Position numbers and translations under genes: made by a program
The notes under the pieces: model-generated
What the model was told of the DNA's origin: nothing
Databases searched by the model: none
Seen by the model: the letters and a program-made list of their open reading frames with translations, nothing else
Assembly (NCBI GenBank): GCA_965215005.1
Contig: CBDCCZ010000003.1
Coordinates: 1-64,000, forward strand
Direction: 5' to 3'
Origin: Kofleriaceae bacterium
GTDB taxonomy: Bacteria; Myxococcota_A; Polyangia; Haliangiales; Haliangiaceae
DNA: 64,000 nucleotides
Part shown: in pieces, positions 83 through 44,250 of the stretch
How positions within the stretch are numbered: the stretch's first letter is position 1
Layout of the letters: every line of letters begins with the position of its first letter

Positions 83-1009
83 GTGAGTGACTGGGAAGAC
101 ATGACCAGCGTGACCATGGCCGAGGACATCCTCGCCCCAGAACCGGCCGAGCGCGATCGCGCTTATCTGGTCGTGTTGGCCGGTGCCAACGTCGGTGAGA
201 TGTTCAAGCTCAACCAGGCCCAGGTCGTGCTCGGTCGTGGCAAGAGCGCCGACATTCGCGTCATCGACGATGGCGTTTCGCGGGAGCATGCGCGGATTCG
301 GGCCGAAGGTGCCCACGTCTACGTCGAGGATCTTGGCAGCCGCAACGGGACGTTCTGCAATGGCAATCGCATCGATCGACAGCCGCTGGAAGATGGCGAC
401 AAAATCCAAGTCGGCCGCACCACCATCCTGAAGTTCACGTATCACGATCGGTTTGACGAGTCGTTTCAGAAGCAGATGTATGACTCAGCGCTGCGCGATC
501 CGCTCACGCGTGCCTTCAACAAGCGCTACTTCAGCGACAGGCTGCTCAGCGAATTCAACTTTTCGAAGCGCCATGAGCAGCCGCTGTCGCTGCTGCTTCT
601 CGATCTCGATCACTTCAAGGCCATCAACGACACGCACGGCCATCTCGCCGGCGATCAAGTGCTGGTGTCATTTGCCAACGCGGTGCAGAAATCGGTGCGC
701 ACCGAGGATGTCTTTGCCCGCTACGGCGGCGAAGAGTTCGCCATCATCTCGCGATCGATCGATCGCGAAGGCGCGCGGCGCTTCGGTGAGCGCCTTCGCC
801 ACGTGGTCGAGAAACTCGAGATCCTACAGGGCGGCAAGCTCATTCCCGTCACCGTGAGCATTGGTGCTGCGACCATGCCCGACAACATCGTCGAAAATCC
901 CGTGGAGCTCATTAGCCTCGCCGACCGTGCGCTGTATTGGGCCAAAGAACGCGGTCGCAATCGCGTCGAGTCATTCACCGACGAGGCAGACGCAACTGGG
1001 CCTGCTTGA
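83..1009 (+). CDS. FHA-domain diguanylate cyclase (FHA-GGDEF)
   Basis: FHA motifs (LGR, VSREHA, DLGSRNGT) followed by DPLT..NKR, DLDHFKAINDTHGHLAGD and RYGGEEF; RxxD I-site (RTED) present. Confidence 0.95.
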   Translation: MSDWEDMTSVTMAEDILAPEPAERDRAYLVVLAGANVGEMFKLNQAQVVLGRGKSADIRVIDDGVSREHARIRAEGAHVYVEDLGSRNGTFCNGNRIDRQPLEDGDKIQVGRTTILKFTYHDRFDESFQKQMYDSALRDPLTRAFNKRYFSDRLLSEFNFSKRHEQPLSLLLLDLDHFKAINDTHGHLAGDQVLVSFANAVQKSVRTEDVFARYGGEEFAIISRSIDREGARRFGERLRHVVEKLEILQGGKLIPVTVSIGAATMPDNIVENPVELISLADRALYWAKERGRNRVESFTDEADATGPA

Positions 1010-1087
1010 GCGCCTCCTGCGCCGCTATTCGGGCGTCTCCGTGTTCTGGGGTTTGCCGCCTGCGACGGCCGTTGATAGCTTCTCGCC

Positions 1088-3577
1088 ATGCGTCTGTCGC
1101 GCTTCGCTGTAGTCTTCGCGCGTCCGCTCATTGCGGCACTGCTTGTGGCAACCCTCCTCGGCGGATGCTCGAGCGATACCGTGAGTCGCAAGCGAACCAC
1201 GCTGGGAAGCTCCGACGCGGGCGAAGGGGAGCATGACGAGCGGGCGCAGGCGGCTATGGCCCGCGGCGTTGCTCAGGCCACCGCGCCCGCGGGGGCCGTC
1301 GCGCTGACCGAAGCCATGGCCGAGCCCTATTTTGCCAGCGGCCCAGCCGCCGAGGCGCACGCGCAGTTTCGCCTCGAACGCTGGAGCGCCGCCCGCGATG
1401 GCTTCAGCTCCTACCTTACTGCCGCGGGAAGCCAGCTTTCCGGCGACCAGCGCGCCCGGATCGAGCTCCTCATCGGCCTTTGCGACGCCGCGCTCGGCAA
1501 CTGGCAAGCAGCCGCCAAAGGCTTGGCCCACGCTGCCGAAGAGCTGCCGCTCATCGCCGACTACATTCACTTCCAGGCCGCGCGCGCGTACTTCTTCGCC
1601 GGCCAAACCGATTTGGCGATGACGCACGCACAGAAGGTTAGCGCTGATTCAATCAGCGGTGCCGATGCGGAGCTGCTCATCGGCGACCTCTTGCGCGGGC
1701 GTGGTGACGCGGCAGCGGTTGCGGCGCACTACCGCACCTATCTCGAGGCGCGGCCGCGCGGTATTCGCCGCGGCGAGGCGCGGTTTCGCCTCGCGCAAGC
1801 CCTCGAAGAGCTCGGCCAACTGCGCGAGGCCGCCGACAGCTACCGCCTCCTGCCCATCGCTGCGCCGCTGTCGAGCTGGGCGCAAGAAGCGGCAGCTCGC
1901 ATCGATGCGCTGCTGCCCAAGCTCGACGCGCAGGCCCGCAGCGCGCTCACCACACTCACCGCTGCCGAACGCCTCGAGCGCGCCATGTCCTTTTACGAAA
2001 ACCAGCGCAACTCCACGTCGGAGGCCGAGTTTGCCAAAGCCTTGGCGGCCCCTGGTCTCACCGCCGAGCAGCGCTGCGTTGCCAGCTATCACCGCGCCAA
2101 CAGCGTCTATAAGGATCGCGACCGGCGCACCGCCGCGCCGCTGTTCGATGCGGCCATCGCAGCGTGTAAGGCGGTCGGCAACCGCGACTTGCACGTCAAA
2201 GCCGCGTATCAAGCCGGACGCTCTTATAGCTACTTTGGCGAGCGCGACAAAGCCATTGCTCGTTACGCCGAAGCCGAGACCATCGATGCCAGCCACACGT
2301 TCAACGACGATGCCCGACTGCGCCAAGCCGAGGAATACGAGGCACTCGGCGATGCTGCCAAGGTAACCGAGCTGCTCGCGAGCATCCCCGCTAGCTATCC
2401 CGAGGGCGATATGCGCGCCGAAGCCATGTGGCGACTCGGGTGGCGCGCGTACTTGGCCAAAGACTATGGCGAAGCAATTCGCTGGTTCCGCCGCCAGATC
2501 GAGGTGGTCCCCATCGATGACAACTGGTGGTCCGAAGGACAACCGCAGTACTGGATGGGCCGCGCCCTCGCGCAGCAAGGCAAGCCAGCGGCGGCCAAAG
2601 AGGCCTACGAGGCTGCGGTTCGGCTATATCCGCTGTCGTATTACGCACTGCTCGCGCTCAACCGCCTGCGTGAATCGCACGCTGCCGCGTTCAAAACGTT
2701 GATGCTCGAGCTCGCCGCGGCGCCGGCGGAGTATGACCCCAGCGCCCCGAGCTTCGTCTTTCAGCCGCGCACGCTGTACGCCGAGCCAGGCTTTGCGCGG
2801 GCGCTCGAGTTCATGCGCCTCGGCCTGCAATGGCCGGCGCAGACCGAGCTGATGCGGCTCGGTTTATCGGCGCCGTCTGACCGCTCGCCCGTGACCGATC
2901 CCGATCAGGCCGAGAAGCTCTGGGCGATGGCGTTTCTGTACAACCGCGCCGGCGACTACTCCACCTCGCACTGGCCGACCCGCTGGCACATCCTCGACTA
3001 TCGTCGCCACTGGCCGGTGGGCGCGATGCGCGCGCGTTGGGAAATCGCCTATCCGCCCGCCTTCCGCGAGCTCTTGACCGAGCACGCCGAGAAGAATGAC
3101 TTCCCGCCCGAGCTGCTCATGGCCATCGTGCGCGAGGAGAGCGCCTTCGACCCGATTCTCGAGTCCTATGCCAACGCCATTGGCCTCACCCAGATGATCT
3201 TCCCGACCGCGCGCCGGTTCGCGGACGGAACCGGCATCGCCGTGAGTCGCGAGACCCTGCGCGACCCGATCAAGAACGTCACGATTGGCGCCCGCTTCCT
3301 CGGCTTCCTCTGGCAGCTGTGGAAGCCGATGTACGCGCTCATTCCGCCGAGCTACAACGCTGGCGAAGGCGCCACTAAGCGCTGGCTGCGCGCTCGCGGC
3401 GATTACGCCACCGACGAGTGGATTGAAGCCATCGGCGTCGATCAGCCGCGGCTCTACTCCAAGCGCGTGCTCGGCACCTTCTTTACCTATTGGTACCTGC
3501 GTCGCGGCACCGTGCCCGAGATGCCAAACGAGATTCCGCCCGAGCTGCTACGCAAAGCCGGGGCCTCGGCGGGTTGA
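1088..3577 (+). CDS. Soluble lytic transglycosylase (Slt70-like) lipoprotein with TPR-like superhelix
   Basis: Lipobox LGGC; C-terminal SLT motifs IVREESAF, AIGLTQM, SYNAG; long helical repeat region. Confidence 0.9.
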   Translation: MRLSRFAVVFARPLIAALLVATLLGGCSSDTVSRKRTTLGSSDAGEGEHDERAQAAMARGVAQATAPAGAVALTEAMAEPYFASGPAAEAHAQFRLERWSAARDGFSSYLTAAGSQLSGDQRARIELLIGLCDAALGNWQAAAKGLAHAAEELPLIADYIHFQAARAYFFAGQTDLAMTHAQKVSADSISGADAELLIGDLLRGRGDAAAVAAHYRTYLEARPRGIRRGEARFRLAQALEELGQLREAADSYRLLPIAAPLSSWAQEAAARIDALLPKLDAQARSALTTLTAAERLERAMSFYENQRNSTSEAEFAKALAAPGLTAEQRCVASYHRANSVYKDRDRRTAAPLFDAAIAACKAVGNRDLHVKAAYQAGRSYSYFGERDKAIARYAEAETIDASHTFNDDARLRQAEEYEALGDAAKVTELLASIPASYPEGDMRAEAMWRLGWRAYLAKDYGEAIRWFRRQIEVVPIDDNWWSEGQPQYWMGRALAQQGKPAAAKEAYEAAVRLYPLSYYALLALNRLRESHAAAFKTLMLELAAAPAEYDPSAPSFVFQPRTLYAEPGFARALEFMRLGLQWPAQTELMRLGLSAPSDRSPVTDPDQAEKLWAMAFLYNRAGDYSTSHWPTRWHILDYRRHWPVGAMRARWEIAYPPAFRELLTEHAEKNDFPPELLMAIVREESAFDPILESYANAIGLTQMIFPTARRFADGTGIAVSRETLRDPIKNVTIGARFLGFLWQLWKPMYALIPPSYNAGEGATKRWLRARGDYATDEWIEAIGVDQPRLYSKRVLGTFFTYWYLRRGTVPEMPNEIPPELLRKAGASAG

Positions 3578-27405: not shown

Positions 27406-27927
27406 CTAGCGTTCAGGATGGGGGGTAAGCAAGCGCTCGATCGAATGGCCAATGGCAGTGCGGGCCCGCTCATCGCCTTCGTTGCTCAGCGCCTGCCGAA
27501 GCGGCGCGATCGCGCGGGGATCTCCCAACATAGCCAATGTTTCTGCTGCGAGCACGCGTACATCGTCGTCGGTGTCGGTGAGCAGTCGCTGCAGGGTGCG
27601 CTGCGCCTGGGGCGCGGCGCGGTAGCCGAGCTCGAGCAGAGCCTCTTGCTTCACGTCGGGCTCGGCGTCGCGGGCCAGCAGTGCCAGTGCCTCATCCGAC
27701 ACCTCGAACGACGGCAGCTCAGCGGCACCAGCGGCAAGCCGCGGCAGTCGCGGAGCGCGCGCGAGCAGCGCAAACCGCGGCTGACCAGCAACGATATCAG
27801 GCAGCGAAGTCTCGCGCTTGGCGCTACCTGATGCAGAAAAGACGCGGCCTTCACCAAACGTATGGGGAAGCACGAGGCCGAGCACGAGCCCGCCCAGGCC
27901 GACGATGGCCACGTTGAAACGCGTCAC
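27406..27927 (-). CDS. Membrane-anchored HEAT-repeat protein
   Basis: GTG start overlapping the phoX stop; N-terminal TM; LLTDTDDDVRVLAAETLAMLGDPRAIAPL. Confidence 0.78.
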   Translation of the reverse strand: MTRFNVAIVGLGGLVLGLVLPHTFGEGRVFSASGSAKRETSLPDIVAGQPRFALLARAPRLPRLAAGAAELPSFEVSDEALALLARDAEPDVKQEALLELGYRAAPQAQRTLQRLLTDTDDDVRVLAAETLAMLGDPRAIAPLRQALSNEGDERARTAIGHSIERLLTPHPER

Positions 27928-29327
27928 AGAACCCCGTTGCGCCAGGGACCGGTGATGGCAAAGGTCACGCCGGGGGTCTGGATGCTCACGAGCAGCCACG
28001 TTCCGCACGGCGTGAAACAGGCGCCAGCCCACTCTTTGCCGCGGAAGTCGCCGCGAAGGTCGTTGACCTCGCCATCGAGCACCACGTTGTTCTGCGCGAA
28101 GTCGAAAATCTGGCCCTCGCAGGTGAGGCCACGCAAAAACAGCCCGCTGGCATCGCCGTCCTCACACAAGAGGATGCCCCCGCGCGGGCTCACCGTGATG
28201 TTGTCGGGATTGTCGAGCACGTCCTCACTCGGCGACTCGAACAGCAGCCGCAATGTGTCGGCGCGCGGATCGAGCTCGAACACCTGCCCTTCGCCGGCCT
28301 CTCCACCGCTGGTGCACGTGAAGTAGATCTTGCCGTGCCCGTACCACATGCCCTCGCCGCGGCGAAACACCGCCCCGCCCTTCTCCAAGCCTTGCGTGAA
28401 GACGCCGGCGCCGTCGCCCGGCTCAGCATCGCGTCGCTCGGGCTCCTCGATGGTCACCCACTCGACCTCGAAGGAGTCGCCCGCCACCAACCCAGTGGAG
28501 GTGTCGAGCTGCGGCTGTCCTCTGACGGCAAGCATCTGCAGCTCACCGCCGGCGCGCAGCCATCCCCAGTAGCGCGGGACATAGCGATAGATGCCCGAGG
28601 TGGCGCGATCCTCCGTCTCGTAAACGATGCCGGTCCATGGGTCGACCGCAGCCGCTTCATGATTGAAACGACCCATTCCACGCAGCGGCTCGGCACTGGC
28701 GCGCCGCCGCGCTGGCACCTCGAAGACCCAGCCGTGGGTCTCGCGAAGCGCCGCGTCGTCGCGCGCCGCTTCGGGTCCATCCAGGGATTCCTCGCAGCTG
28801 AGCCACGTGTTCCATGGCGTGGGACCACCGGCGCAGTTGCGAACCGTGCCGCTGAGGCTCGGTATCGTCCGCACATACCGGCCGCGCCGGCTATCGAACA
28901 CCACTGTCGTGGTGCCGCCGGGGGCTTGGCCGCCATCGTAGGTGAGGCCTTCGTCGGCGAACGAGGTCTGCCAGCGACTCGTCTCGCGATAAGAAAGCTC
29001 ATGATTGCGCACGTAGTAGACCCTCCCCCACGCGCCCCATAAGGCAGCACCACCATCGTGGCCGGCGGGCGTGGGCGCGCCATCGGTCATGGGGTCGCCG
29101 GTCCAGCCAAAGCTCAGGTAGCGAAAGCCTGCCGGCAGGCGAATGAGCGGCAATCCGGTGGTCTCATCAATTGCCTCGAGCAGCGGACCGTAGGCCTCGG
29201 CGCTCCCCGCGCAGCGTCGCCCATAGCTCGCCAGCGCCTCGAATGGCTTGGCCATGGTCACGGTCGCTGCCAGTGCAGCCCCGCCGCCAACGAAGCCCCG
29301 CCGCGTCATCGTCTTGTGTTCGCGCAT
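27924..29327 (-). CDS. phoX: PhoX-family (DUF839) alkaline phosphatase with Tat signal
   Basis: TRRGFV Tat motif; RNHE, NCAGG.TPWNTWLSCEE, MGRFNHEA, ETED, RGEG, PDNI, CEDG. Confidence 0.9.
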   Translation of the reverse strand: MREHKTMTRRGFVGGGAALAATVTMAKPFEALASYGRRCAGSAEAYGPLLEAIDETTGLPLIRLPAGFRYLSFGWTGDPMTDGAPTPAGHDGGAALWGAWGRVYYVRNHELSYRETSRWQTSFADEGLTYDGGQAPGGTTTVVFDSRRGRYVRTIPSLSGTVRNCAGGPTPWNTWLSCEESLDGPEAARDDAALRETHGWVFEVPARRRASAEPLRGMGRFNHEAAAVDPWTGIVYETEDRATSGIYRYVPRYWGWLRAGGELQMLAVRGQPQLDTSTGLVAGDSFEVEWVTIEEPERRDAEPGDGAGVFTQGLEKGGAVFRRGEGMWYGHGKIYFTCTSGGEAGEGQVFELDPRADTLRLLFESPSEDVLDNPDNITVSPRGGILLCEDGDASGLFLRGLTCEGQIFDFAQNNVVLDGEVNDLRGDFRGKEWAGACFTPCGTWLLVSIQTPGVTFAITGPWRNGVL

Positions 29328-29487
29328 ATCCCAGCCTCCCTCTCGCGTCGCGCTACCGCAGCAATCACCCCAGCCGCCGCGGCTCTGCATCACGTGTCGC
29401 TAAGGTAGGAGGACGTGGTGTCGGAACGGTCGTGGCCGGTAAACATTGCGGCGAAGCTGCGCCGTCGACGAGATGACGCTGCCGCTG

Positions 29488-29705: not shown

Positions 29706-30191
29706 TCAGCGGCGACGCAACGCCTGCTGAATCTCGCGCGATGCCTCCGCTTCGCGTTTGGCCTCGCGCTTCTCAAACTTCTTCCGCCCCGGCCCCAGGC
29801 CTAGCTCTACTTTGATTCGGCCATTTTTGACGTACATCGCCAGAGGAACCAGCGAGAGGCCCCGTTGGCTCACAGCGACCCAGAGCTTGTCGATCTCGCG
29901 CTTGTGCAGGAGCAGCTTGCGGCGCCGCGTCGGCTCATGATTGAACTGATTGGCCCACGGGTATTCCTCGATCTGCACGCCCACCAGCCACGCTTCGCCA
30001 CGCCGAATCTCGACGAAGCCCTCGCCAAGCGAGGCGCGCGCGTCGCGCAGCGACTTCACCTCGGAGCCAACCAGCTGGATACCCGCTTCATAGCGCTCCT
30101 GAATCTCGTAGTCGTGCAGCGCCTTGCGATTACGCGCCAGCACCTGCGACCCTTCCGCCGATAGCTCCTTTTGCTTCCGCTTCTTCGCCAC
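29706..30191 (-). CDS. smpB: SsrA-binding protein
   Basis: NRKALHDY..EAGIQLVGSEVKSLR, HEPTRRRKLLLHKREI. Confidence 0.97.
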   Translation of the reverse strand: MAKKRKQKELSAEGSQVLARNRKALHDYEIQERYEAGIQLVGSEVKSLRDARASLGEGFVEIRRGEAWLVGVQIEEYPWANQFNHEPTRRRKLLLHKREIDKLWVAVSQRGLSLVPLAMYVKNGRIKVELGLGPGRKKFEKREAKREAEASREIQQALRRR

Positions 30192-30266
30192 GAGCGCGCT
30201 ACGCTAGCCTTCCCGGCCGCCGTTTGGCCAGCCGTGCGAGCCGCAATCCCGACGCGCTCGCGCCGG

Positions 30267-30962
30267 TCACTCGGCCCGGGCCACCGCGAAACCGCGCACC
30301 GCCGTGGCCCCCGCCGCAAGCAGCGCGCGGGCACACGCCGCCATGGTCGTACCGGTGGTGATGACGTCGTCAAAGAGCAGGATGCGCCGGCCCTCCACGC
30401 GTCGCTGCCGGCGGCGCGCCACCACGAAGGCGTCTGCGAGATTCCCGGCGCGCTGACCGCGACCGAGTCGGGCTTGCGGCTCGGCTCCGCGCACCCGCCG
30501 CAGCGAGACCCCGTCAATCATCGCTTTCGGCGCAGCGGCTCGTGCGAGCAGCAGCGATTGATTGAAGCCGCGTGCCGCCTGTCGGCGCCAGTGTAGCGGC
30601 ACCGGCACGACCGTGTCGCAACCTTCGATAGCGGACATCAACGCCGCGCGAAACAGCGGCGCCAGCGCTTTGGCCAGCTCCGCTCGCCGCTGATACTTCA
30701 AGCGCTGCAGCGCCACCGCAAGCTCGCCGCCATAGCGAAACGATGCACTCATCTGCTCCAACGGCAGCGGACGCCTGCGGCAGCGGCGGCATGTCACCGC
30801 CACGGGACCATCGATTGGCTGCGCGCAGCCGGGACAGCCGTTGGTCAGCGGATACAGCGACACTGCGCAGGTGGCGCACAGCGCTTGCCCCGGCGGCAGC
30901 CGCTCATCACACGCGCCACAGCCCGGCACGAAGAGCCAGTCGGCGATTGCAATCCTGCGCAT
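30267..30962 (-). CDS. comF: ComF family protein (zinc ribbon + phosphoribosyltransferase)
   Basis: Four CxxC; VPVPLH..RGFNQS; LLFDDVITTGTT. Confidence 0.9.
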   Translation of the reverse strand: MRRIAIADWLFVPGCGACDERLPPGQALCATCAVSLYPLTNGCPGCAQPIDGPVAVTCRRCRRRPLPLEQMSASFRYGGELAVALQRLKYQRRAELAKALAPLFRAALMSAIEGCDTVVPVPLHWRRQAARGFNQSLLLARAAAPKAMIDGVSLRRVRGAEPQARLGRGQRAGNLADAFVVARRRQRRVEGRRILLFDDVITTGTTMAACARALLAAGATAVRGFAVARAE

Positions 30963-31085
30963 GCAACGGGTATCGGTGCGTTGCCTCCACGGTTGCCGAT
31001 GCAGTTCGCAGTCCGCGTCACCGCCCTCCCGCCACACATCAAACTAGTGCGCTTTCGAACACAGCCAACATGACCGCACAAACGC

Positions 31086-34000
31086 TCACGGCGATGCATC
31101 TGGCGACACTCCAATGACGAGCTCGATGCGGTCGTTGACCCGCGCCGCCCCGCGCTGCCCAACTGGCATCAGCGGCTGCGTGGAACCCGCGCCTTCACTG
31201 CTCAAACGCTCAGCCGCGATTCCCCACTGCACGAGCCACTCGCGCACCACCTCGGCGCGCTGCTCCGCCAGCGCCTGATCGCGCCTGCCGCGCGGATGGA
31301 CGTGGGCGACGACTCGCACCTGCTCGATGTCCGCGTGCGCGCGAAGCGTCGCAGCAACCTGGCCAAGCAGGTTGAAACTTTCTGGCACGAGCTCAGCGGA
31401 CCGGCCGCGGAATCGAATTGGCTCAAACAGCTCGAGGCGCTCGGCGGTGACCATCACCAACACGTCGCCGGCATCGGGGCAGCCATCGTCATCGGCGTTG
31501 CCGTTGATGGTTTCCGCGGCGGTCGCACATTGATCGACGGCGTCGGGAACTCCATCGTGGTCATTGTCGGGGTCGGGGCAGCCATCCTGATCCTCGAACC
31601 CATCCTGATCCTCTTGCTCGCTCGGACAGCGATCGACGGCATCGGCGAGTCCATCTCCGTCGTTGTCGAGGTCGGGACAGCCATCGGTGTCCTCATAGCC
31701 GTCGATGTCCTCGGGCTGCCTTGGGCATACGTCGGCGGCATCACCGATGCCATCGCCATCGTCATCCTCTTCTGGGCAGCCATCGTCGTCGGCGAACCCA
31801 TCGCGATCTTCGGCGCGCGCTGGACAGCGATCGAGCACGTTGACGATGCCGTCGTAGTCGTCGTCGGCTTGCTCGCGCAATCGCCGACGCACCTCAGCGG
31901 TGAGAATCGGCTCGATTGGCTTGGCGCCCGGCGAGAACCGCACGCTCACGAGCGCGCGAAACTCTGCGACGCCAATTCCCGGCAGCAAGCCGCGGCCGCC
32001 CCCCGCCATGACCGCCAGCTCACGGGTCACGCGATAGCGAGCGCCGCCCAGCACCTCGAGCGGGCGCACGCCATCCGCGTCATCGACGAGCCCAACGCTA
32101 CCGAGCAGCTCGGCAACGGCGGTGAGCGCCGGCACCACCCGATACGCGGCGCCAAAGCCATAGGTGAGCTCACTGCCCTGCGTAACATCTCCAAAGCGAG
32201 TCGACTGCCGCGCACGTGCCCCGCCGTTGATCACCAGCTCTAGGCGGGTGGTCTTCACGCCCGCGATGATCCGCGCATGGGCGGTGGGATCGGGGCTGCC
32301 GGCGAAGGCGTCTTGCGAGTTCGTCGGAATCGTAAGCGTGACCGAAGCGGCGAGCGACAGCATGGGATTGGCTGCGATGAGCCCTTTGCCGTGCAACGCG
32401 ATATCACCCAGAGAAGTTCCTCCAGCGGGCTCGACGCCGCTGAACGTGGGAGCATCACCGCGTTGCACCAGCATTGGCACCATCGCCCCGACCTCGAATC
32501 GATCCAGGAGCGCGTAGGCGACCGCAAGCTCGGCTACCGCGCGCGAACGAACCGGAACGTCGGTCATTTCCGACCCCGCCTCTACTACCAGCGGGTTGTG
32601 TAGAAACCCCATCCCGAGGCTGAAGGCATAGGCGCCATCGGGTGCCACGCCGGGCGCCTCCACCGCGAACATCCCGCCTTCGACTGTCGCCGCGGCGCGG
32701 GTGTTTTGAAGCTCGAGGTTGCGGCTCACGTCGGCTCGCGCGAGCCCGTTCCCGATGGCCCACGCCGCCAACCCTGTTAGAATCGATAGCAGCAATTGGC
32801 GCCGCAGCAGCACCAATACCAGCAGCGCGAGCACGCCGCCGAGCCCGCCATCGCCGCCAACGCGGCACCCACCGCCGCGCACCTCGACCGCGATTGCCTC
32901 GCCGCGAACGCGGGCAAAGCTCACCCGCTCAGGATCATTGGCTAGATAGATCTCCACGAACACTTCGAACCCACCGGGACGTCGCGCAACGAGCTCGACA
33001 TCGAGGTCGACGCCAGTCATTGGCGGCAGCCCGAAATCGGGCCCGAGGCTCACAACTCGCGCGCCGATCGGCCGCTCACTCGTATCGACCACGCGCACCT
33101 GCCGAACCACATACGACTCAGTTGCATCCATGTTGACCAGTCGCAGCGCAGCACCGAGCTCGGAAAGGCGCACCGGGATGCCAACCCCAACCCGCCCAAG
33201 GTCGATGGCGTCGGCGGACAGCGCCACGTTCGGCAACACACCACGCCCCCGCAATGTCACCCTCGCCATCGGGGTATCGCGATCATCGCTGGTAAGAATC
33301 AGGAATGCCTCGAGCGGCGCAGCATTGGCCACCGACGGCGCGAACCCCACCTCGATCGACTCGGTCTCGCCAGGCGCAATCCGCAGGGTTGCCGCGCTGA
33401 GCAACACGAAGGCACCAGCATCGGCGCCCTCGATGACTATCTGAGAGATCTCGAGCGGCGCATCGCCGGTGTTGGCGACCCTCACCTGGGCTCTTCGCGG
33501 CTCGCTCGGGTTGCGCAGCGTCGGCTCGAACTCTACGACCGGCTCCGGCAATGACACGTTGCGATCGATTCCGCGACCCGTGAGCGGTATCGAGGCAAGC
33601 GCGCCACACGTTGCATCGGCCTCAATGATCAGCCGCGCCTCCGCCTCACCGGCGCTCGCCATCGTCGGGCGGTAGCGCAGCGCGATCGTGACGCTCGCCC
33701 CCGCCGCTAGCTCGAGCGGCAACGCCGGCGGCGAGGCGAGCGCATATACGCCAGCACCTCGGCCCTCGATGCGCAGCGCTCGCACGGTAAGGTCATCACC
33801 GGTATTGGTGATCGTAAGCTCTCGCGTAGCCGGATTTTCAGCCTGCACATCCTGAACGCCAAAGTCGACGACCGCGGCAGACACCGCCAGGTCGGCAGCA
33901 GTCCCAGTAACCACAGCGTCGGCCATGACGACCCGCTGACCGGTGATATCGGTGGTGATGGTCACCGTCGCGCGCCGTATCCCCACCGTGCGCGGCGCCG

Positions 34001-35261
34001 CCGTTAGACGGTACTGCGCGAGCTGACCTGGTGCGAGCACGGCGGGTAGGCTTACGGGCTCGAGGAGCTCGAGGGTGAAATCTTCGACATTGTCGAGCGC
34101 GATCGCGCCGAGCGTCCAAGCAGCGGAGCCGATGTTTTCGATCGTGAACGTCTGCGCCACCGGCGGCTCGCACACGCCGATGGCGCCATAGTCGAAGCTT
34201 TGCGGCGTAACCCGCACGGCAGTGCCAAGGCCGGTTCCAGACAGCACCACGCTCTGCACCCCATCGGCCAAGCCGATGTTTAGCGCCCCTTCAAACTCGC
34301 GGGCAGCCGTCGGCGTGAAGGTAACTCCCAAGCTGGCCGTGGCACCTGGCACCAGCACCAGCTGCCCCGGAGGCGTCGTGAGCGCAAACTCCGCGATCGA
34401 GGTCGCAATGGACTCGATAGTGACAGCGGCCTCGCCGTCGTTGCGCAGCATCACCGGCACTTCCTGGGAGGCAACGCCCACCGTCACCCCGCCGAACATC
34501 ACCGCCGCCGGCGTCACCGTGAGCCCTGCGGTGGCCGTAGCAGTGACGGTGATGACCTCGAGAGGCTCGACGGGGTCATTGGCTCGCACCGTGATGGCTC
34601 CGTCGCGCACGCCGGCGGCTAGCGGCTGATACGTCACGACGAGCGCGGCGGTTTCGCCAGGTTCGAGGAGCAACCCGAGGCCGGGGTCAAAGCCGCTCAC
34701 GCTGAAGTCGGCAACGCCTGCATAATCGACAGCGTCGATCATGAGTGGACTATCGCCGGTGTTGGCGAGCTCCACCGTCGCCGTACGCATCGCGGAGCCG
34801 ACCCGAGCCGCCCCAAAGACGACCGCTTGCGGCGAGACGCTGAGCTCGGGCGCCGAGCCTATGCCAGTGACGGCAACGGCAATGGCTTGATCCATCGGGT
34901 CGGGGTCGTTGTTAGGCAGCTGCACCGAGCACGACCGAGCGCCGCGGGTGGTGGGCGTCAGCTCTACGCGGTAATCCACTGCTTCGCCATTGGCCAACCG
35001 CTGCGGCGCGGCTGGAGTGATCGCTACATCGAGGCAGTCGCCGCTAAGCTGCGGTGTGTCGATGCGCAGGGGCCCGGCATCGAGATTCTCCGCGCGCACC
35101 ACCGCAATGCGACTGTCTCCTACCGCGACCACGCCGAAGTCGACAGTCATTGTCGATAGCCGTATGTCGTCGGCTAGCGCCGTGCGTTCGCCAGCGGCAA
35201 GCGCCACAAAACACGACAGCGCGGCGGCCCAACGCGCAAACGGGGCAAAGTGAGTCATCAT
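31086..35261 (-). CDS. Large surface protein: seven Ig-like (ASH/choice-of-anchor D type) repeats, internal MYXO-CTERM, beta-barrel, TSP3 repeats, OmpA-like domain
   Basis: Signal peptide (ALA-D); repeats of V.P..V.FG.V.VG...N.G...L.I; GGGC..hydrophobic..RR; DxDGDG...D.CP...ED.DGF.D.DGCP repeats; C-terminal RA..V..WL...GIAAERL..G.G...P..N.RIE. Confidence 0.88.
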   Translation of the reverse strand: MMTHFAPFARWAAALSCFVALAAGERTALADDIRLSTMTVDFGVVAVGDSRIAVVRAENLDAGPLRIDTPQLSGDCLDVAITPAAPQRLANGEAVDYRVELTPTTRGARSCSVQLPNNDPDPMDQAIAVAVTGIGSAPELSVSPQAVVFGAARVGSAMRTATVELANTGDSPLMIDAVDYAGVADFSVSGFDPGLGLLLEPGETAALVVTYQPLAAGVRDGAITVRANDPVEPLEVITVTATATAGLTVTPAAVMFGGVTVGVASQEVPVMLRNDGEAAVTIESIATSIAEFALTTPPGQLVLVPGATASLGVTFTPTAAREFEGALNIGLADGVQSVVLSGTGLGTAVRVTPQSFDYGAIGVCEPPVAQTFTIENIGSAAWTLGAIALDNVEDFTLELLEPVSLPAVLAPGQLAQYRLTAAPRTVGIRRATVTITTDITGQRVVMADAVVTGTAADLAVSAAVVDFGVQDVQAENPATRELTITNTGDDLTVRALRIEGRGAGVYALASPPALPLELAAGASVTIALRYRPTMASAGEAEARLIIEADATCGALASIPLTGRGIDRNVSLPEPVVEFEPTLRNPSEPRRAQVRVANTGDAPLEISQIVIEGADAGAFVLLSAATLRIAPGETESIEVGFAPSVANAAPLEAFLILTSDDRDTPMARVTLRGRGVLPNVALSADAIDLGRVGVGIPVRLSELGAALRLVNMDATESYVVRQVRVVDTSERPIGARVVSLGPDFGLPPMTGVDLDVELVARRPGGFEVFVEIYLANDPERVSFARVRGEAIAVEVRGGGCRVGGDGGLGGVLALLVLVLLRRQLLLSILTGLAAWAIGNGLARADVSRNLELQNTRAAATVEGGMFAVEAPGVAPDGAYAFSLGMGFLHNPLVVEAGSEMTDVPVRSRAVAELAVAYALLDRFEVGAMVPMLVQRGDAPTFSGVEPAGGTSLGDIALHGKGLIAANPMLSLAASVTLTIPTNSQDAFAGSPDPTAHARIIAGVKTTRLELVINGGARARQSTRFGDVTQGSELTYGFGAAYRVVPALTAVAELLGSVGLVDDADGVRPLEVLGGARYRVTRELAVMAGGGRGLLPGIGVAEFRALVSVRFSPGAKPIEPILTAEVRRRLREQADDDYDGIVNVLDRCPARAEDRDGFADDDGCPEEDDDGDGIGDAADVCPRQPEDIDGYEDTDGCPDLDNDGDGLADAVDRCPSEQEDQDGFEDQDGCPDPDNDHDGVPDAVDQCATAAETINGNADDDGCPDAGDVLVMVTAERLELFEPIRFRGRSAELVPESFNLLGQVAATLRAHADIEQVRVVAHVHPRGRRDQALAEQRAEVVREWLVQWGIAAERLSSEGAGSTQPLMPVGQRGAARVNDRIELVIGVSPDASP

Positions 35262-35406
35262 GTACAAAGCTCCAGCGCGAGGGAGCGAGTGCTACAACTA
35301 ACAACCGCGCAGCGCGCCAACGATGACTCTATCTTGCAGACCCACGATGCGAAAGCCATGCTGTGGTTCGTCGCACAGCCAACCTGTGGAAAGTATAGGA
35401 GTTCCG

Positions 35407-40357: not shown

Positions 40358-41261
40358 TGGTCGGGTCCAAGAGCTCGACCAGCGCCCAGGCGGGGTACGG
40401 GTCGGCGTCTGGCAGCGCGCTGAGTGCAAAGTTGCCCCCGGCCACTCCGCATCCGCATCCCGGAGCAAGAGGTCAATTCGCGCCGACGTTCCCAAATCGC
40501 CCTTGTACGATCGTCACAGCGCGCCGGCCTCCGCACCAAACCGCCGCCTCGTCGCCCGCCGCTCTTCGACGAACCGCAACGTCAGAAGGGTGCCCCGGTA
40601 GCAAGCCCCCTGCCCCTCGACACCGCTCATAACTCCGTAATTTATCACAGCAGCGGGAGCGAGCTCGCCTCGGCAGCGGATGGGGTATGCAACCACAGGG
40701 GGCCCTCAGGGCAGCGCGGGCGCGGCAGCCCGCATCCAGCGGACCGCACCACGCCCTGCTCCTCGCCGAGCTAACGGATACACGGGCGCTCGCCACCTGC
40801 GGCCCTCCTCCACCACGCCGCTCTTCCGAGCCACGCGCTCCGGTTGACTCTGTCGCGCGGGCATGACCGTCGAAGGACGAGGACGCCGTTCTCGAATAGT
40901 CGGCGAGCCTTTTCTCCTCACCGGATGGCTTGCCGATGCCGCATGAGCTTTGCACGAGCAGCGCGGGCGTGGCGCGAGCGTGCGCCCGCGCTGAGAGCTT
41001 CTTGCGCGCCTGCTCGCGCGGTCGCGCACGCATATGCATGACGACGGCAACTTCCCTGCACATCGGCATCGCCGCCGCCATCGCGGCACCTACACGCAGC
41101 TCCTCTACGTGTCTTTCGGCTGGCCGCCCACGTGGACGGTCGCAGGGAATTCTGGCCCTCATACCCAAATTCCGCTGGGGCGGCACGCAGCAGCAGCTGG
41201 ATTGGCAGCGGATGCACGGAGCGACTACAGCTTTGGCCGATGCTGCCGTAGGCTCGTTGCG

Positions 41262-44250
41262 GTGGCGATCTCAGCGTCCACGTCGACCGACTCAGCGAAG
41301 CCATCCGGTGCCTCGACGCCCGAGCCGATTCCCGACCTCCAGCTCGAGCGCTATCGGCTGGTCGAATTCCTCGGCGCTGGGGCCGCCGGGCGCGTCTTCC
41401 GCGCCCATGATCAGGTGCGTCGTCAAGAAGTCGCCGCCGCCAAGCTGCTCACGTCGCTGCGCCCCGACGCTCTGCACCGTTTCAAGCAAGAGTTCCGCGC
41501 CCTCGCCGACGTCGTCCATCCGAACCTCGTCACCCTTTATGAGCTCCTCGCCTACCCAGACGGATGGGCGGTCATCATGGAGCTCATCGAAGGCGCGCAG
41601 CCGCTGCTCGACTACGCCATCGTCTTCGCCGGCCGCTGCTACGAGGGTGAGTCGATGCCCTTCAAGGCGCTGGACGCGGTCGTGGATGCCATTGCCTCGT
41701 TTCTACGCGCCAACGACGAGCTGGCCCGCCATCCTACCGCCGGAGATCGAGAGCCTGGTCCACCTGTTCCCGGCGCTCCGCCGAGCGGCTGCCATCGCCG
41801 AGCGGCTGGCGCAGGGAGGGGAGCCGCCGCCGGCCGATACCATCCGCCGAAGCGCTGCCGCCGCCTTGACGTCGCTGCTGACCCGGCTAGCCGCCCACCT
41901 CCCGGTGATCGTCAGCGTCGACGACTTGCAGTGGGGCGACCTGGATAGCGCACCGTTCCTGATCGAGCTCACTCAGGCCAGGGGCGGCGGAATTCTGCTC
42001 CTTGGCACCTATCGCAACGATGGCGCCGCCGAGGCCGAGCTCGTCACCGCGCTGCGCAATAACCTCCGCACCACCGGCGCCGCTCCGCAAGCGCGCGTGT
42101 TATCGCTCGGGCGCCTTCGCGACGAAGACATCGCCGATTTGGTCGCCAAGGTCAGCGGCGAGCCACGAGATACCGCGCTGGTGCAACGGCTGGCGCACGA
42201 GGCCGAGGGCAACGCCTTCTTTGCCGCCGAGCTAGCCTTCGCCGGCGGAACCGTCGCCAGCGCTAGAGTCCACAAGCTCGATGCACTCATCGCGCAGCGT
42301 GTCGACGAGCTGCCCAACGATGCGCAGCGCCTGCTGCAGGTCACCGCTCTGGCCGCCAAGCCGCAGCCGGTCGACATCCTGGTGCGAGCGGCGCGCGTGC
42401 GGGACGTGGCGCGGACCCTGGCGCAGCTGCGTGCTGGGCGCTTCTTGCGCATGCTGCACACCCGCGCGGGCGAGCACGTCACTACCTATCACGATCGCGT
42501 GCGCGAGACGGTCGTCGCCCATATCGACCCCCAGCTGGCTCGCAAGCTCCACCGGCGGCTGGCGCGCGCCTTCGAAGCCGCCCCCGAAGCCGAGCGCGAT
42601 CTCGAGGCCCTGGTCCATCACTGGCGCGGCGCCGGCACCCGCGATCGGGCCCGGCGCTATGCCCTCTTGGCCGCCGATCGCGCCCTCGCCGCCCGCGCCT
42701 ACGTGAGCGCCGCCGCGCACCTCGGCACCGCCATCGAGCTGTCCGCCGATGACGACGATGATGCGCTCGAGCTCGAGCTACTCCGCGCCGACGCGCTGCA
42801 GCGCGGAGGGCAGCTGGCTGCTGCCGCCGCGGCGTTCGCGGCGGCAGCCCATCATGCTCCCGCCGAGCTCGCCGCCGACCTCCACGCCCGCGCCATGGTG
42901 TGCCTGTTGCGAGCCGGCCGCCTCGGAGAGGCGATCGACGCCAGCCGCGCGGCGGCGCCAGCGCTGGGCGGACTCCTGCCGCGGTCGACCGCCGCCGCCG
43001 TCGCCGCGATCACCGGCCAGCGGCTGACGCTCCTGGGGCGACGCCTGGACGTGCGGCGCCCCCGAGACGAGCGCGAGTGCGACCCCGCCGAGCTGCAGCG
43101 CACCGAGGTCGCGCTGGATACCGCGGCTGGCCTCACGTTCATCGATCCGCTGCTCGGCTATGCCTTGCACGGCCGCGCTTTGCGACGCGCCCTTCGCGCG
43201 CGGGAGCCCAAGCGCGTCGTGGTGGCCCTCAATTACGAGGCGCTGCTCAACGCCGCGCTGTGGGGCAAGCGCGGCGCCCGCACCACCAATACTCTGCTCG
43301 ACCGCGGCCGACGCCTCGCCGAGGCCCACGCTCCCACGAGCTACGTCGCTGCCGTGGACGGATGGCGCGGCTTTGCGCGTTTGTTGGAGTACGACGACCT
43401 CGAGACTGGCCTGGCCCTTCTCGAACGCGGCGTGGCGGGTCTCGAGCACGACCCGCGCTTCGCCTACGACGCCGACCAGCTTCGGCTGGCAATGGTCAAC
43501 GTCATGGCCACTATGGGAACCTTCGCGCTGCTGAGCGAGCGGCTGCCGGTCCTGATGCGCAGCGCCCACGAGAGTGGAAATCTCTTCCTGTTCGACAGCC
43601 TCCGCAGACAAGGCGGCGTCTACACCTGGCTCGTCGCCGATGCTCCTCGCGAAGGCGAGAACCAGGCCGGGCTGTCCAGCGATATCCAGGCCAGCCGTCC
43701 AACGCTCAGTGAGTTCTATGGCCGCGCGGCTCTCGCCGAGATTGCGCTCTACCGCGGTCAGCCGGAAGCCGCATGGCAGCACGTCGCGGCGTTCTGGCGC
43801 CGCCTGAGCCGCTCTTCGCTGGCCCTGTGTGCCCTGCCCCGAGGCTACCCGGCGATGATCGCTGGCCGCACCGCGCTCGCTTGTGCCCGCACGCGCCCGC
43901 ACGAGCAAGCGCTGTGGCTCGGCCGCGCTCTTGCCCTAGCGCGCAGCATCCAACGCGAACGCCTGCGGATGCCCACGTTCGCGCGAAGCCACGCCAGCGC
44001 CATCCGCGGCATGGTCGCCGCCATCCGCGGTCACCAGGACACCGCCGTCGAGATGCTCTCGTGCGCGATCGACGCCCTCGACAGCGTGGGTGTGCGGCTC
44101 TGGGAGGGGCCGCTGCGCCTGCGACTCGGCCAGCTGCTCGGCGGCGACGAGGGCGCCGAGCAGATGAATCGCTACTACGCATGGGCGAAGCAGGAATGCA
44201 TCGGCCATCCCGACCGCTGGGCCGCCGCGCTGTATCCGCCACTGCGCTGA
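41262..44250 (+). pseudogene. Disrupted Ser/Thr kinase-AAA ATPase-helical protein (internal deletion near 41615, frameshift near 41727)
   Basis: Kinase N-lobe (LGAGAAGRVF, RFKQEFRALADVVHPNLV, MELIEG) joins directly to AGRCYEGESMPFKALD; no HRD/DFG or Walker A; VDDLQWGD, EGNAFF and HDRVRE continue in another frame. Confidence 0.82.

Follow-up and report, generated by a model that had tools for sequence, protein, structure and literature searches.

A conserved gene of a Kofleriaceae bacterium joins an Ig-repeat part to a TraB-like barrel through an internal MYXO-CTERM-type tag and a second predicted signal peptide: a probable secretory polyprotein

Within the window, by which we mean the whole stretch of 64,000 nucleotides that was analysed (positions 1 to 64,000 of contig CBDCCZ010000003.1, assembly GCA_965215005.1, from a Kofleriaceae bacterium), a single gene on the minus strand encodes, in this order, a signal peptide, seven Ig-like domains, a MYXO-CTERM-type tag, a second signal-peptide-like segment, a 12-strand beta-barrel, thrombospondin type 3 (TSP3) repeats and an OmpA domain. 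We consider it fairly probable that the product is a secretory (Sec) polyprotein which would give rise to two partners, a lipidated adhesin and a TraB-like anchor. One frame free of stop codons (31086..35267, minus strand, from the open reading frame listing and its translation) runs across the junction between the two parts, as the original prediction, made from the DNA letters, had stated. The description of the gene given there proved right in every detail, and those points of its interpretation that lend themselves to comparison of sequences were borne out. Its ATG at 35261, which has GGAG 8 nt upstream (35273-35270), is the probable start of the gene; residues are numbered here from the TTG at 35267 (residue 1 of translation P0001), so that counted from the ATG the protein is two residues shorter. 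A library protein (P0008) has the same length as the window protein, 1391 amino acids, and an identical junction. The features of the gene are given below, a slash marking a predicted cleavage site.

31086..35261 (stop codon 31086-31088), minus strand: whole gene, encoding a 1391-residue precursor (open frame; GGAG 5' of the ATG; 1391-residue library protein P0008).
35172..35261, minus strand: predicted N-terminal Sec-type signal peptide, M3-A32, with MMTHFAPFAR, WAAALSCFVALAAG and ERTALA/DD in an n-h-c layout and a putative cut at ALA/D.
33231..35171, minus strand: six choice-of-anchor D (HYDIN/VesB-like Ig) domains, residues 33-679 (NF012200, 251 bits in 6 stretches; PF22544, 109 bits).
32877..33206, minus strand: seventh Ig-like domain, residues 688-797, adjoining the tag (fold model; a complex model would place it on the barrel).
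32799..32876, minus strand: internal MYXO-CTERM-type tag, residues 798-823, with GGGC801 (Cys codon 32865-32867), a Gly-rich linker, the helix GVLALLVLVLL and RR822-823 (TIGR03901; conservation in orthologues).
32733..32804, minus strand: internal signal-peptide-like segment, residues 822-845, with RR as n-region, QLLLSILTGLAAWAIG as h-region, NGLARA as c-region and a predicted signal peptidase I cut at ARA845/D846 (AxA nearly invariant; signal peptides of stand-alone homologues align).
31935..32732, minus strand: predicted mature N-terminus at D846 (S/T-R-N-L-D/E-L) and 12-strand outer-membrane beta-barrel, strands at about 880-1111 (AF2 model; Foldseek).
31464..31877, minus strand: TSP3 (calcium-binding) repeats, at about residues 1131-1268 (PF02412; NF047638 covers the stretch; invariant D/C/G columns in alignment A1; likeness to 5wtl).
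31113..31412, minus strand: OmpA-like peptidoglycan-binding domain, residues 1286-1385 (PF00691; NCBIfam OmpA-type models; Foldseek OmpA/Pal/YfiB).

The junction reads V796-RGGGC801-RVGGDGGLGGVLALLVLVLL-RR823-QLLLSILTGLAAWAIGNGLARA845/D846 (window 32733-32882), exactly the letters quoted in the original prediction. All three parts of a MYXO-CTERM tag are present, namely a Cys motif (GGGC801), a hydrophobic helix (GVLALLVLVLL) and a basic cluster (RR), and the TIGR03901 hidden Markov model settles on residues 798-823, so that the claim of an internal MYXO-CTERM pattern holds, at a borderline score (15.5 bits with the N part, 19.8 with a 91-residue piece and 21.5 in a six-frame search of the genome, against a cut-off of 20). 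The location is not the C-terminal one that defines such tags, for 570 residues lie beyond it. The same model matched none of 14 control genomes in six-frame searches, and since all 11 orthologues and all 79 fused library representatives have the tag as well, it should be regarded as more than a chance match. In an alignment that starts 40 residues ahead of the tag and takes in the rest of the protein (A1; 11 genomes, 41-50% identical to the window), G798, G800 and C801 are invariant (G-x-G-C), an RRR cluster and the A-x-A that follows it are nearly so, and the mature start is conserved as (S/T)-R-N/D-(L/I)-(D/E)-L.

Directly after the tag, the features of a Sec signal (a basic n-region, an h-region and a small-x-small site) are present and conserved, and the segment aligns with the signal peptides that stand-alone homologues have at their N-terminus. 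The basic cluster is common to the tag's tail and to the putative n-region in all 11 orthologues, which bears out the suggestion that the two arginines would serve both. The wider family was surveyed by searching the A1 profile against a library of 1.84 billion protein representatives, which gave 7343 matches at E<1e-30, and by classing the best 150 according to where their best stretch starts: in 60 the same last domain precedes tag, signal and barrel in a fused chain; another 19, reaching 4657 residues, are likewise fused, but the shared stretch starts at the tag and the N-terminal part ahead of it differs; 27 are stand-alone, their N-terminus aligning with the signal-peptide positions; and 44, whose best stretch covers only TSP3/OmpA, are unclassified. 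All 79 fused representatives show a Cys motif, 13 or more uncharged residues in a row and two or more basic residues. By a simple rule of our own, which favours Ala, a site like that of signal peptidase I is found in 58 of the 60, in 18 of the 19 (76/79 fused representatives overall) and in 21 of 24 stand-alone forms, at a median distance from the start of the barrel profile of 12, 14 and 11 residues, respectively. The AxA signal-type segment that had been noticed after the tag thus keeps both its cleavage motif and the barrel distance of stand-alone signal peptides. Because each half also occurs alone, we take the gene to be, as far as its sequence tells, a joining of two complete secretory proteins in which the basic tail of the tag and the n-region of the signal have merged.

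Fused homologues, which the original prediction had named as a check, are not confined to the protein library. Among the matches listed for 40 related genomes (534 further matches exist), at least 15 genomes have one stop-free match that begins at or before query residue 520 and crosses the junction, and at least 23 have a stop-free match covering at least residues 798-850. The named relatives are mostly metagenome-assembled genomes (MAGs) labelled Kofleriaceae, Haliangiales and other Myxococcota, and the stop-free state is retained across genera at 35-50% identity. One could still suppose that a lost stop or an indel has joined neighbouring genes in a genome derived from a metagenome, and the sole run that contains the stretch does give a depth of only 3.7. 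A contig made by a second assembler (Logan) is nevertheless identical over 32300-33300, without an indel; it stems from that one run, probably the source sample, and is therefore not independent data. One relative (L009, G019:C22), in which the junction is intact, shifts frame within query residues 735-749, some 60 codons ahead of the tag; this is either a MAG frameshift or a pseudogene; a break of this kind lends the supposition some colour, although it lies upstream of the tag. A stop-free fusion in many genera and in 79 of the best 150 library representatives refutes an assembly artefact, to which we attach a probability so small as to be negligible, and by the sequence comparisons the fusion is conserved.

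A different account would have the gene be two genes that lack a stop codon between them, with the TraB-like protein made mainly from an internal start in the tag helix (TTG or GTG before LLRR, as the original prediction had offered by way of alternative) and the fusion itself incidental. The window does have in-frame GTG or TTG codons at -10, -4, -3 and +3 codons from R822, and passages of PMC11980579 report that the traA and traB frames of Myxococcus xanthus overlap, so that loss of a stop could have made such a fusion. Two of the 11 orthologues (L002 and L006), however, have no in-frame ATG, GTG or TTG between the Cys and the basic cluster, and none of the 11 has a Shine-Dalgarno-like motif 4-16 nt upstream of any candidate, whereas the ATG at 35261 has its GGAG. 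Ribosomes that start at the 5' end would in any case still yield the whole chain, whose fate needs explaining, and the retention of the stop-free state across genera speaks in the same sense. An internal start was therefore rejected as a conserved feature of the family, and as an account of the window gene it seems to us very improbable.

The seven Ig-like repeats that had been read from the letters are likewise upheld. Six belong to the choice-of-anchor D family (NF012200, 239-251 bits against a cut-off of 45), and the seventh (residues 688-797), which matched no NCBIfam family in the profile scan, has the HYDIN/PapD-like Ig fold in the AF2 model (pLDDT 89; 2e6j, TM 0.65). Only choice-of-anchor D and Ig families were matched by the N part in Pfam and NCBIfam scans, with no TraA-type domain among the matches, and the variable domain and Cys-rich stalk by which a TraA would be recognized are absent from it. 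A stand-alone homologue of the Ig part (L104; G016:C453, frame 713-3298, plus strand), with 32% identity over residues 101-797, ends in R-G-G-G-C, a helix, RRK plus 11 residues and a stop, which is to say in a true terminal MYXO-CTERM; no TraB-like match was found by tblastn in about 3 kb downstream of it.

The C part fits the predicted succession of barrel, TSP3 repeats and OmpA domain by Pfam and NCBIfam families, by AF2 and by Foldseek. No Pfam family was matched by the barrel, which in the AF2 model opens with a strand some 35 residues past the AxA; its nearest folds by Foldseek are FapF (5o68, TMt 0.70) and a COG4313 channel (4rl8, TMt 0.65). A search with the whole model is dominated by the OmpA and barrel parts, the TSP3-OmpA part resembling the periplasmic part of Capnocytophaga OmpA (5wtl), and PF00691 scores 39 bits against a cut-off of 27.2 over residues 1286-1368. 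The TraB model NF033763 gives 171.9 and 177.5 bits against a cut-off of 700, and membership of the TraB family was rejected on that score. The proposed analogy to TraA and TraB, with Ig repeats in place of the TraA domains, consequently stands as regards architecture, since the C part has the signal peptide, barrel, TSP3 repeats and OmpA domain of a TraB and the N part lacks TraA domains, but not as regards TraB membership. In terms of sequence, the C part is TraB-like in architecture and the N part is not a TraA. The same genome has two stand-alone TraB-like genes (C4:151379-153193 and C38:155960-157900) with ordinary N-terminal signal peptides, one of which is followed by N-I-D-L-N-A-F-R-P, a mature start as in the fused forms (N-I-D-L-x-x-F-x-P).

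We propose that the N-terminal signal peptide would direct the chain through Sec, and that the tag helix (811-821) and the second hydrophobic stretch (824-842) would form a hairpin in the inner membrane whose RR loop, doubling as the tag's basic tail and the next signal's n-region, would be cytoplasmic. Two hydrophobic stretches separated by an Arg loop fit a hairpin with both large domains in the periplasm, according to the positive-inside rule. Signal peptidase I would then cut after ARA845 and free the TraB-like part, the barrel of which would be inserted by the beta-barrel assembly machinery while TSP3 and OmpA would stay in the periplasm, bound to peptidoglycan. What remains of the N part would be an ordinary MYXO-CTERM protein, to be lipidated at Cys801, cut by a myxosortase-like CPBP protease and carried by the type II system to the cell surface. 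The two products would meet again 1:1, the last Ig domain and its tail resting on the extracellular loops of the barrel, so that the adhesin would gain a link across the outer membrane to the cell wall, in the way suggested for TraA/TraB. Being made as one chain, both partners would be delivered together and in equal amounts. Since tethering to an inner-membrane helix would keep the barrel from the outer membrane, release at ARA845/D846 would, we infer from the model, be required for function.

The machinery that this route calls for has candidate counterparts in the genome. A gene for a MrtX-like protein (a myxosortase-like CPBP protease) is matched by NF040593 with 121.6 bits (E 1e-34, positions 14-235 of 238), and a GspD secretin scores 468.8 bits, above its cut-off. 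In M. xanthus, according to the relevant passages of PMC11980579, MrtX cleaves MYXO-CTERM and the surface display of MYXO-CTERM proteins depends on the type II system.

The reunion of the two products was modelled by a complex prediction with the barrel (A1 positions 89-365) and the last Ig domain up to Cys801 (A2), in three runs with three controls. The models reached an ipSAE of 0.80 in all three runs against 0.03 for the best control, with at least 96% contact agreement between runs and a partner pLDDT of at least 74; that mark is reached by 116 of 157 solved complexes and by 2 of 215 mismatched pairs, counts that hold only roughly here because the run used our own 11-row alignments. The predicted barrel contacts lie at A1 positions 133-141, 185-189, 229, 267-271, 307-314 and 335-345, that is, in all six loops which would be extracellular by the strand order of the AF2 model. 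This assignment uses the usual rule that both ends of a barrel are periplasmic. On the other side, the modelled contacts of the last Ig domain include its last ten residues (792-801). The model supports binding of the last Ig domain to the outer loops of the barrel, and it parallels what passages of PMC12045341 report for TraA and TraB, namely a 1:1 ratio and an AlphaFold model that sets the membrane-near head of TraA on the TraB barrel.

Several observations nonetheless weigh against a polyprotein that is cut twice and reunited. The tag is borderline by score and its tail has two basic residues only; the MrtX-like gene falls below its curated cut-off (121.6 against 180); the signal-peptide call comes from a heuristic that favours Ala and is a prediction; the junction has a pLDDT below 50 in the AF2 model, which is therefore uninformative there; the complex score expresses the confidence of a model built on shallow, 11-row alignments; and cleavage, lipidation and location are deduced, both here and for every fused relative, from the protein sequences. 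Furthermore, of the 20 tags that exceed the TIGR03901 cut-off in the source genome, 16 end 0-10 residues before a stop and four are internal, so that 16 other tagged proteins manage without a fused barrel, and the pathway does not as a rule require a barrel partner.

The weak tag score, the short RR tail and the MrtX-like gene under its cut-off would suit a chain that is incompletely processed, one that stays whole or is cut only once, for instance with the barrel freed and the Ig part left on an inner-membrane hairpin facing the periplasm. A mere membrane helix would hardly account, however, for a Cys motif that does not vary among the 11 orthologues and that all 79 fused representatives possess, and the N-part homologue with a terminal tag carries the same motif. 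To judge by the AF2 model, moreover, the whole chain could not put its barrel in the outer membrane, and the Ig domain sits on the outer side of the barrel in the complex model. We accordingly think incomplete processing unlikely, while granting it somewhat more than a token chance.

The complex model also bears on another possibility, something like a split autotransporter made from one precursor. The barrel would then serve the adhesin as a translocon or dock of its own in the outer membrane, and after the cuts the tail at the adhesin's C-terminus would be passed or held by this FapF-like barrel, whether in place of the type II system or alongside it. Likeness to the polypeptide transporter FapF and to COG4313 channels speaks for this, and in the model the last ten residues of the adhesin (to Cys801) and the first residues of the barrel (A1 90-92) lie at the barrel mouth. 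In type Va autotransporters, too, a single chain carries its passenger on the N-terminal side of a barrel. Their barrel, however, is the last domain, whereas here TSP3 and OmpA follow, no autotransporter family was matched in Pfam and NCBIfam scans, and passenger and barrel are separated by a hydrophobic hairpin that comprises an Arg loop, a sorting tag and a predicted signal peptidase site and that would act as a stop-transfer signal and not as an autotransporter linker. That 16 of the 20 tagged proteins of the genome lack a barrel tells against this possibility as well, as does what is published on M. xanthus, where in the passages concerned TraA and TraB reach the outer membrane independently (PMC12045341) and MYXO-CTERM proteins depend on the type II system (PMC11980579). 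We regard a split autotransporter as a doubtful reading with a small chance, and continue to favour two cuts followed by reunion of the adhesin with its anchor.

The other internal tags of the genome broaden the picture, since two of them precede lipoprotein-type signals (...RRR...SLQSGC and ...RRR...SLAGC). The first lies outside the window in a frame of 1362 residues (L094; G000:C1:79491-83576, minus strand) without a Pfam match, in which GGGCNC...FFLRRR is followed by the SLQSGC signal and a C part of 469 residues. Of 25 other genomes searched, 19 match it without a stop in a single stretch that spans the junction, and two more have 1-2 stops; each of the 6 loci inspected retains the Cys tag, the Arg-rich loop and the lipobox Cys. 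On these sequences it appears to be a second polyprotein family, and its conservation implies that the joint of tag and signal is not limited to TraB-like partners. The second (G000:C42:122711-123202, plus strand, outside the window) is a MYXO-CTERM match followed by the lipobox SLAGC, in a frame of only 164 residues. Some 20 codons ahead of the tag there is a stop, and the locus may represent a C1-type family copy that has been broken or frameshifted. A second fused paralogue (L095; G000:C6:98782-105201, minus strand, outside the window) has a TSP3-rich N part of about 1800 residues, the tag GGGCSTGG...RSRR, a signal ending AKA/QQ and a barrel that ends about 20 residues later, with no TSP3/OmpA part. 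A bolder reading would make the hairpin of tag and signal a general joint for the envelope polyproteins of this lineage, and the FapF-like barrel the dock or translocon of its adhesin, a split autotransporter released by two different membrane proteases. We keep this reading in view because four of 20 tags are internal, two of them before lipoprotein-type signals, and the adhesin tail lies in the modelled barrel mouth, yet as a whole it strikes us as speculative and not likely to be right.

The neighbours of the gene in the profile scan of window proteins are ComF, SmpB and a TPR protein, with neither ftsA nor ftsZ nearby. SmpB (194.6 bits) and the ComF-family protein (window 29706-31037, minus strand) are directly downstream on the same strand as the fused gene; a gap of 48 nt separates the fused gene's stop from the ComF frame, so that they may be co-transcribed. 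Among the runs listed as containing the stretch, none is an RNA run. Two long frames elsewhere in the window (40930-44250, plus strand, 1106 residues; 27924-29393, minus strand, 489 residues) have no NCBIfam match at E<=1e-5 and, given the high G+C of the DNA, are perhaps not genes.

The layout, together with the proposed processing of the N part, is already in print for MXAN_5598 of M. xanthus, which is described in the Discussion of Guo, Haft and Wall (mBio 2025, PMC11980579) as a large adhesin with an internal MYXO-CTERM followed by an outer-membrane barrel and OmpA. In the passages concerned, the authors liken it to TraA plus TraB, propose, as a proposal only, that the N part is processed and surface-anchored, call internal-tag cases rare and do not mention a second signal peptide; in the lineage of the window gene, by contrast, fused forms are common. 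Like the MXAN_5598 type, the window gene has an adhesin, an internal tag, a barrel and OmpA in one frame; the same two-part junction (GHGCSTGG...RRFRR...SAHA/Q) recurs in a Corallococcus gene by ftsZ (L034), at 35% identity to the window's C-terminal module from the tag onward. The N part of that type is nevertheless CglD/TSP3-like instead of a run of seven Ig-like domains, and L034 has both the CglD-like N part and ftsZ downstream, whereas the ftsA/ftsZ synteny of MXAN_5598 was sought and is absent at the window locus. By sequence and gene order, then, the window gene belongs to this kind as a paralogue that carries another passenger and lies among other genes, and is not an orthologue of the L034/MXAN_5598 type.

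As for TraA/TraB, the likeness consists in a MYXO-CTERM surface protein paired with a partner made of signal peptide, barrel, TSP3 and OmpA, the base of the adhesin being modelled atop the barrel in both cases (for TraA/TraB, in the pertinent passages of PMC12045341). The differences are that one gene takes the place of two overlapping genes in M. xanthus, that TraA-type domains are missing and that the C part scores 177.5 bits against 700 with the TraB model; membrane exchange and kin recognition belong to TraA/TraB, the fused gene being known here from its sequence. Choice-of-anchor D proteins with a terminal MYXO-CTERM, such as L104, share the repeat family and the R-G-G-G-C tag after the last domain but end 14 residues after the basic cluster, where the window protein continues for 570 residues. 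The FapF and COG4313 barrels (5o68, 4rl8) share the 12-strand fold (TMt 0.65-0.70) but are 11-16% identical, have no sequence family in common with it and have different flanking domains. Another bacterial membrane polyprotein, the FbcH cytochrome b/c1 precursor of Bradyrhizobium, is split by signal peptidase at an internal signal peptide; its proteins are unrelated to those described here, and it has neither a sorting tag nor a second protease. Our search of the literature on bacterial polyproteins with an internal signal peptide and signal peptidase found nothing relevant, and the Haft preprint (10.1101/2023.06.07.544157) does not mention TraB, fusion, internal, OmpA or polyprotein.

The window contributes an Ig-repeat family conserved across genera and, beyond that, a tally of internal tags for a single genome, examples of each half standing alone, a test of the internal-start account and the complex model. 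With 7343 matches to the family and more than half of the best 150 fused, the view of internal tags as rare, as expressed in the passages of PMC11980579 cited above, is too narrow. If the predicted cuts occur, the gene would encode a naturally occurring Sec polyprotein of bacteria that signal peptidase and a myxosortase split between them, and this would explain how equal amounts are obtained of an adhesin and of the barrel that ties it to the cell wall. The Ig-repeat version would offer a simple, repeat-built test case for TraA/TraB-like adhesion, and its junction might be usable as a tool for the co-delivery of two envelope proteins.

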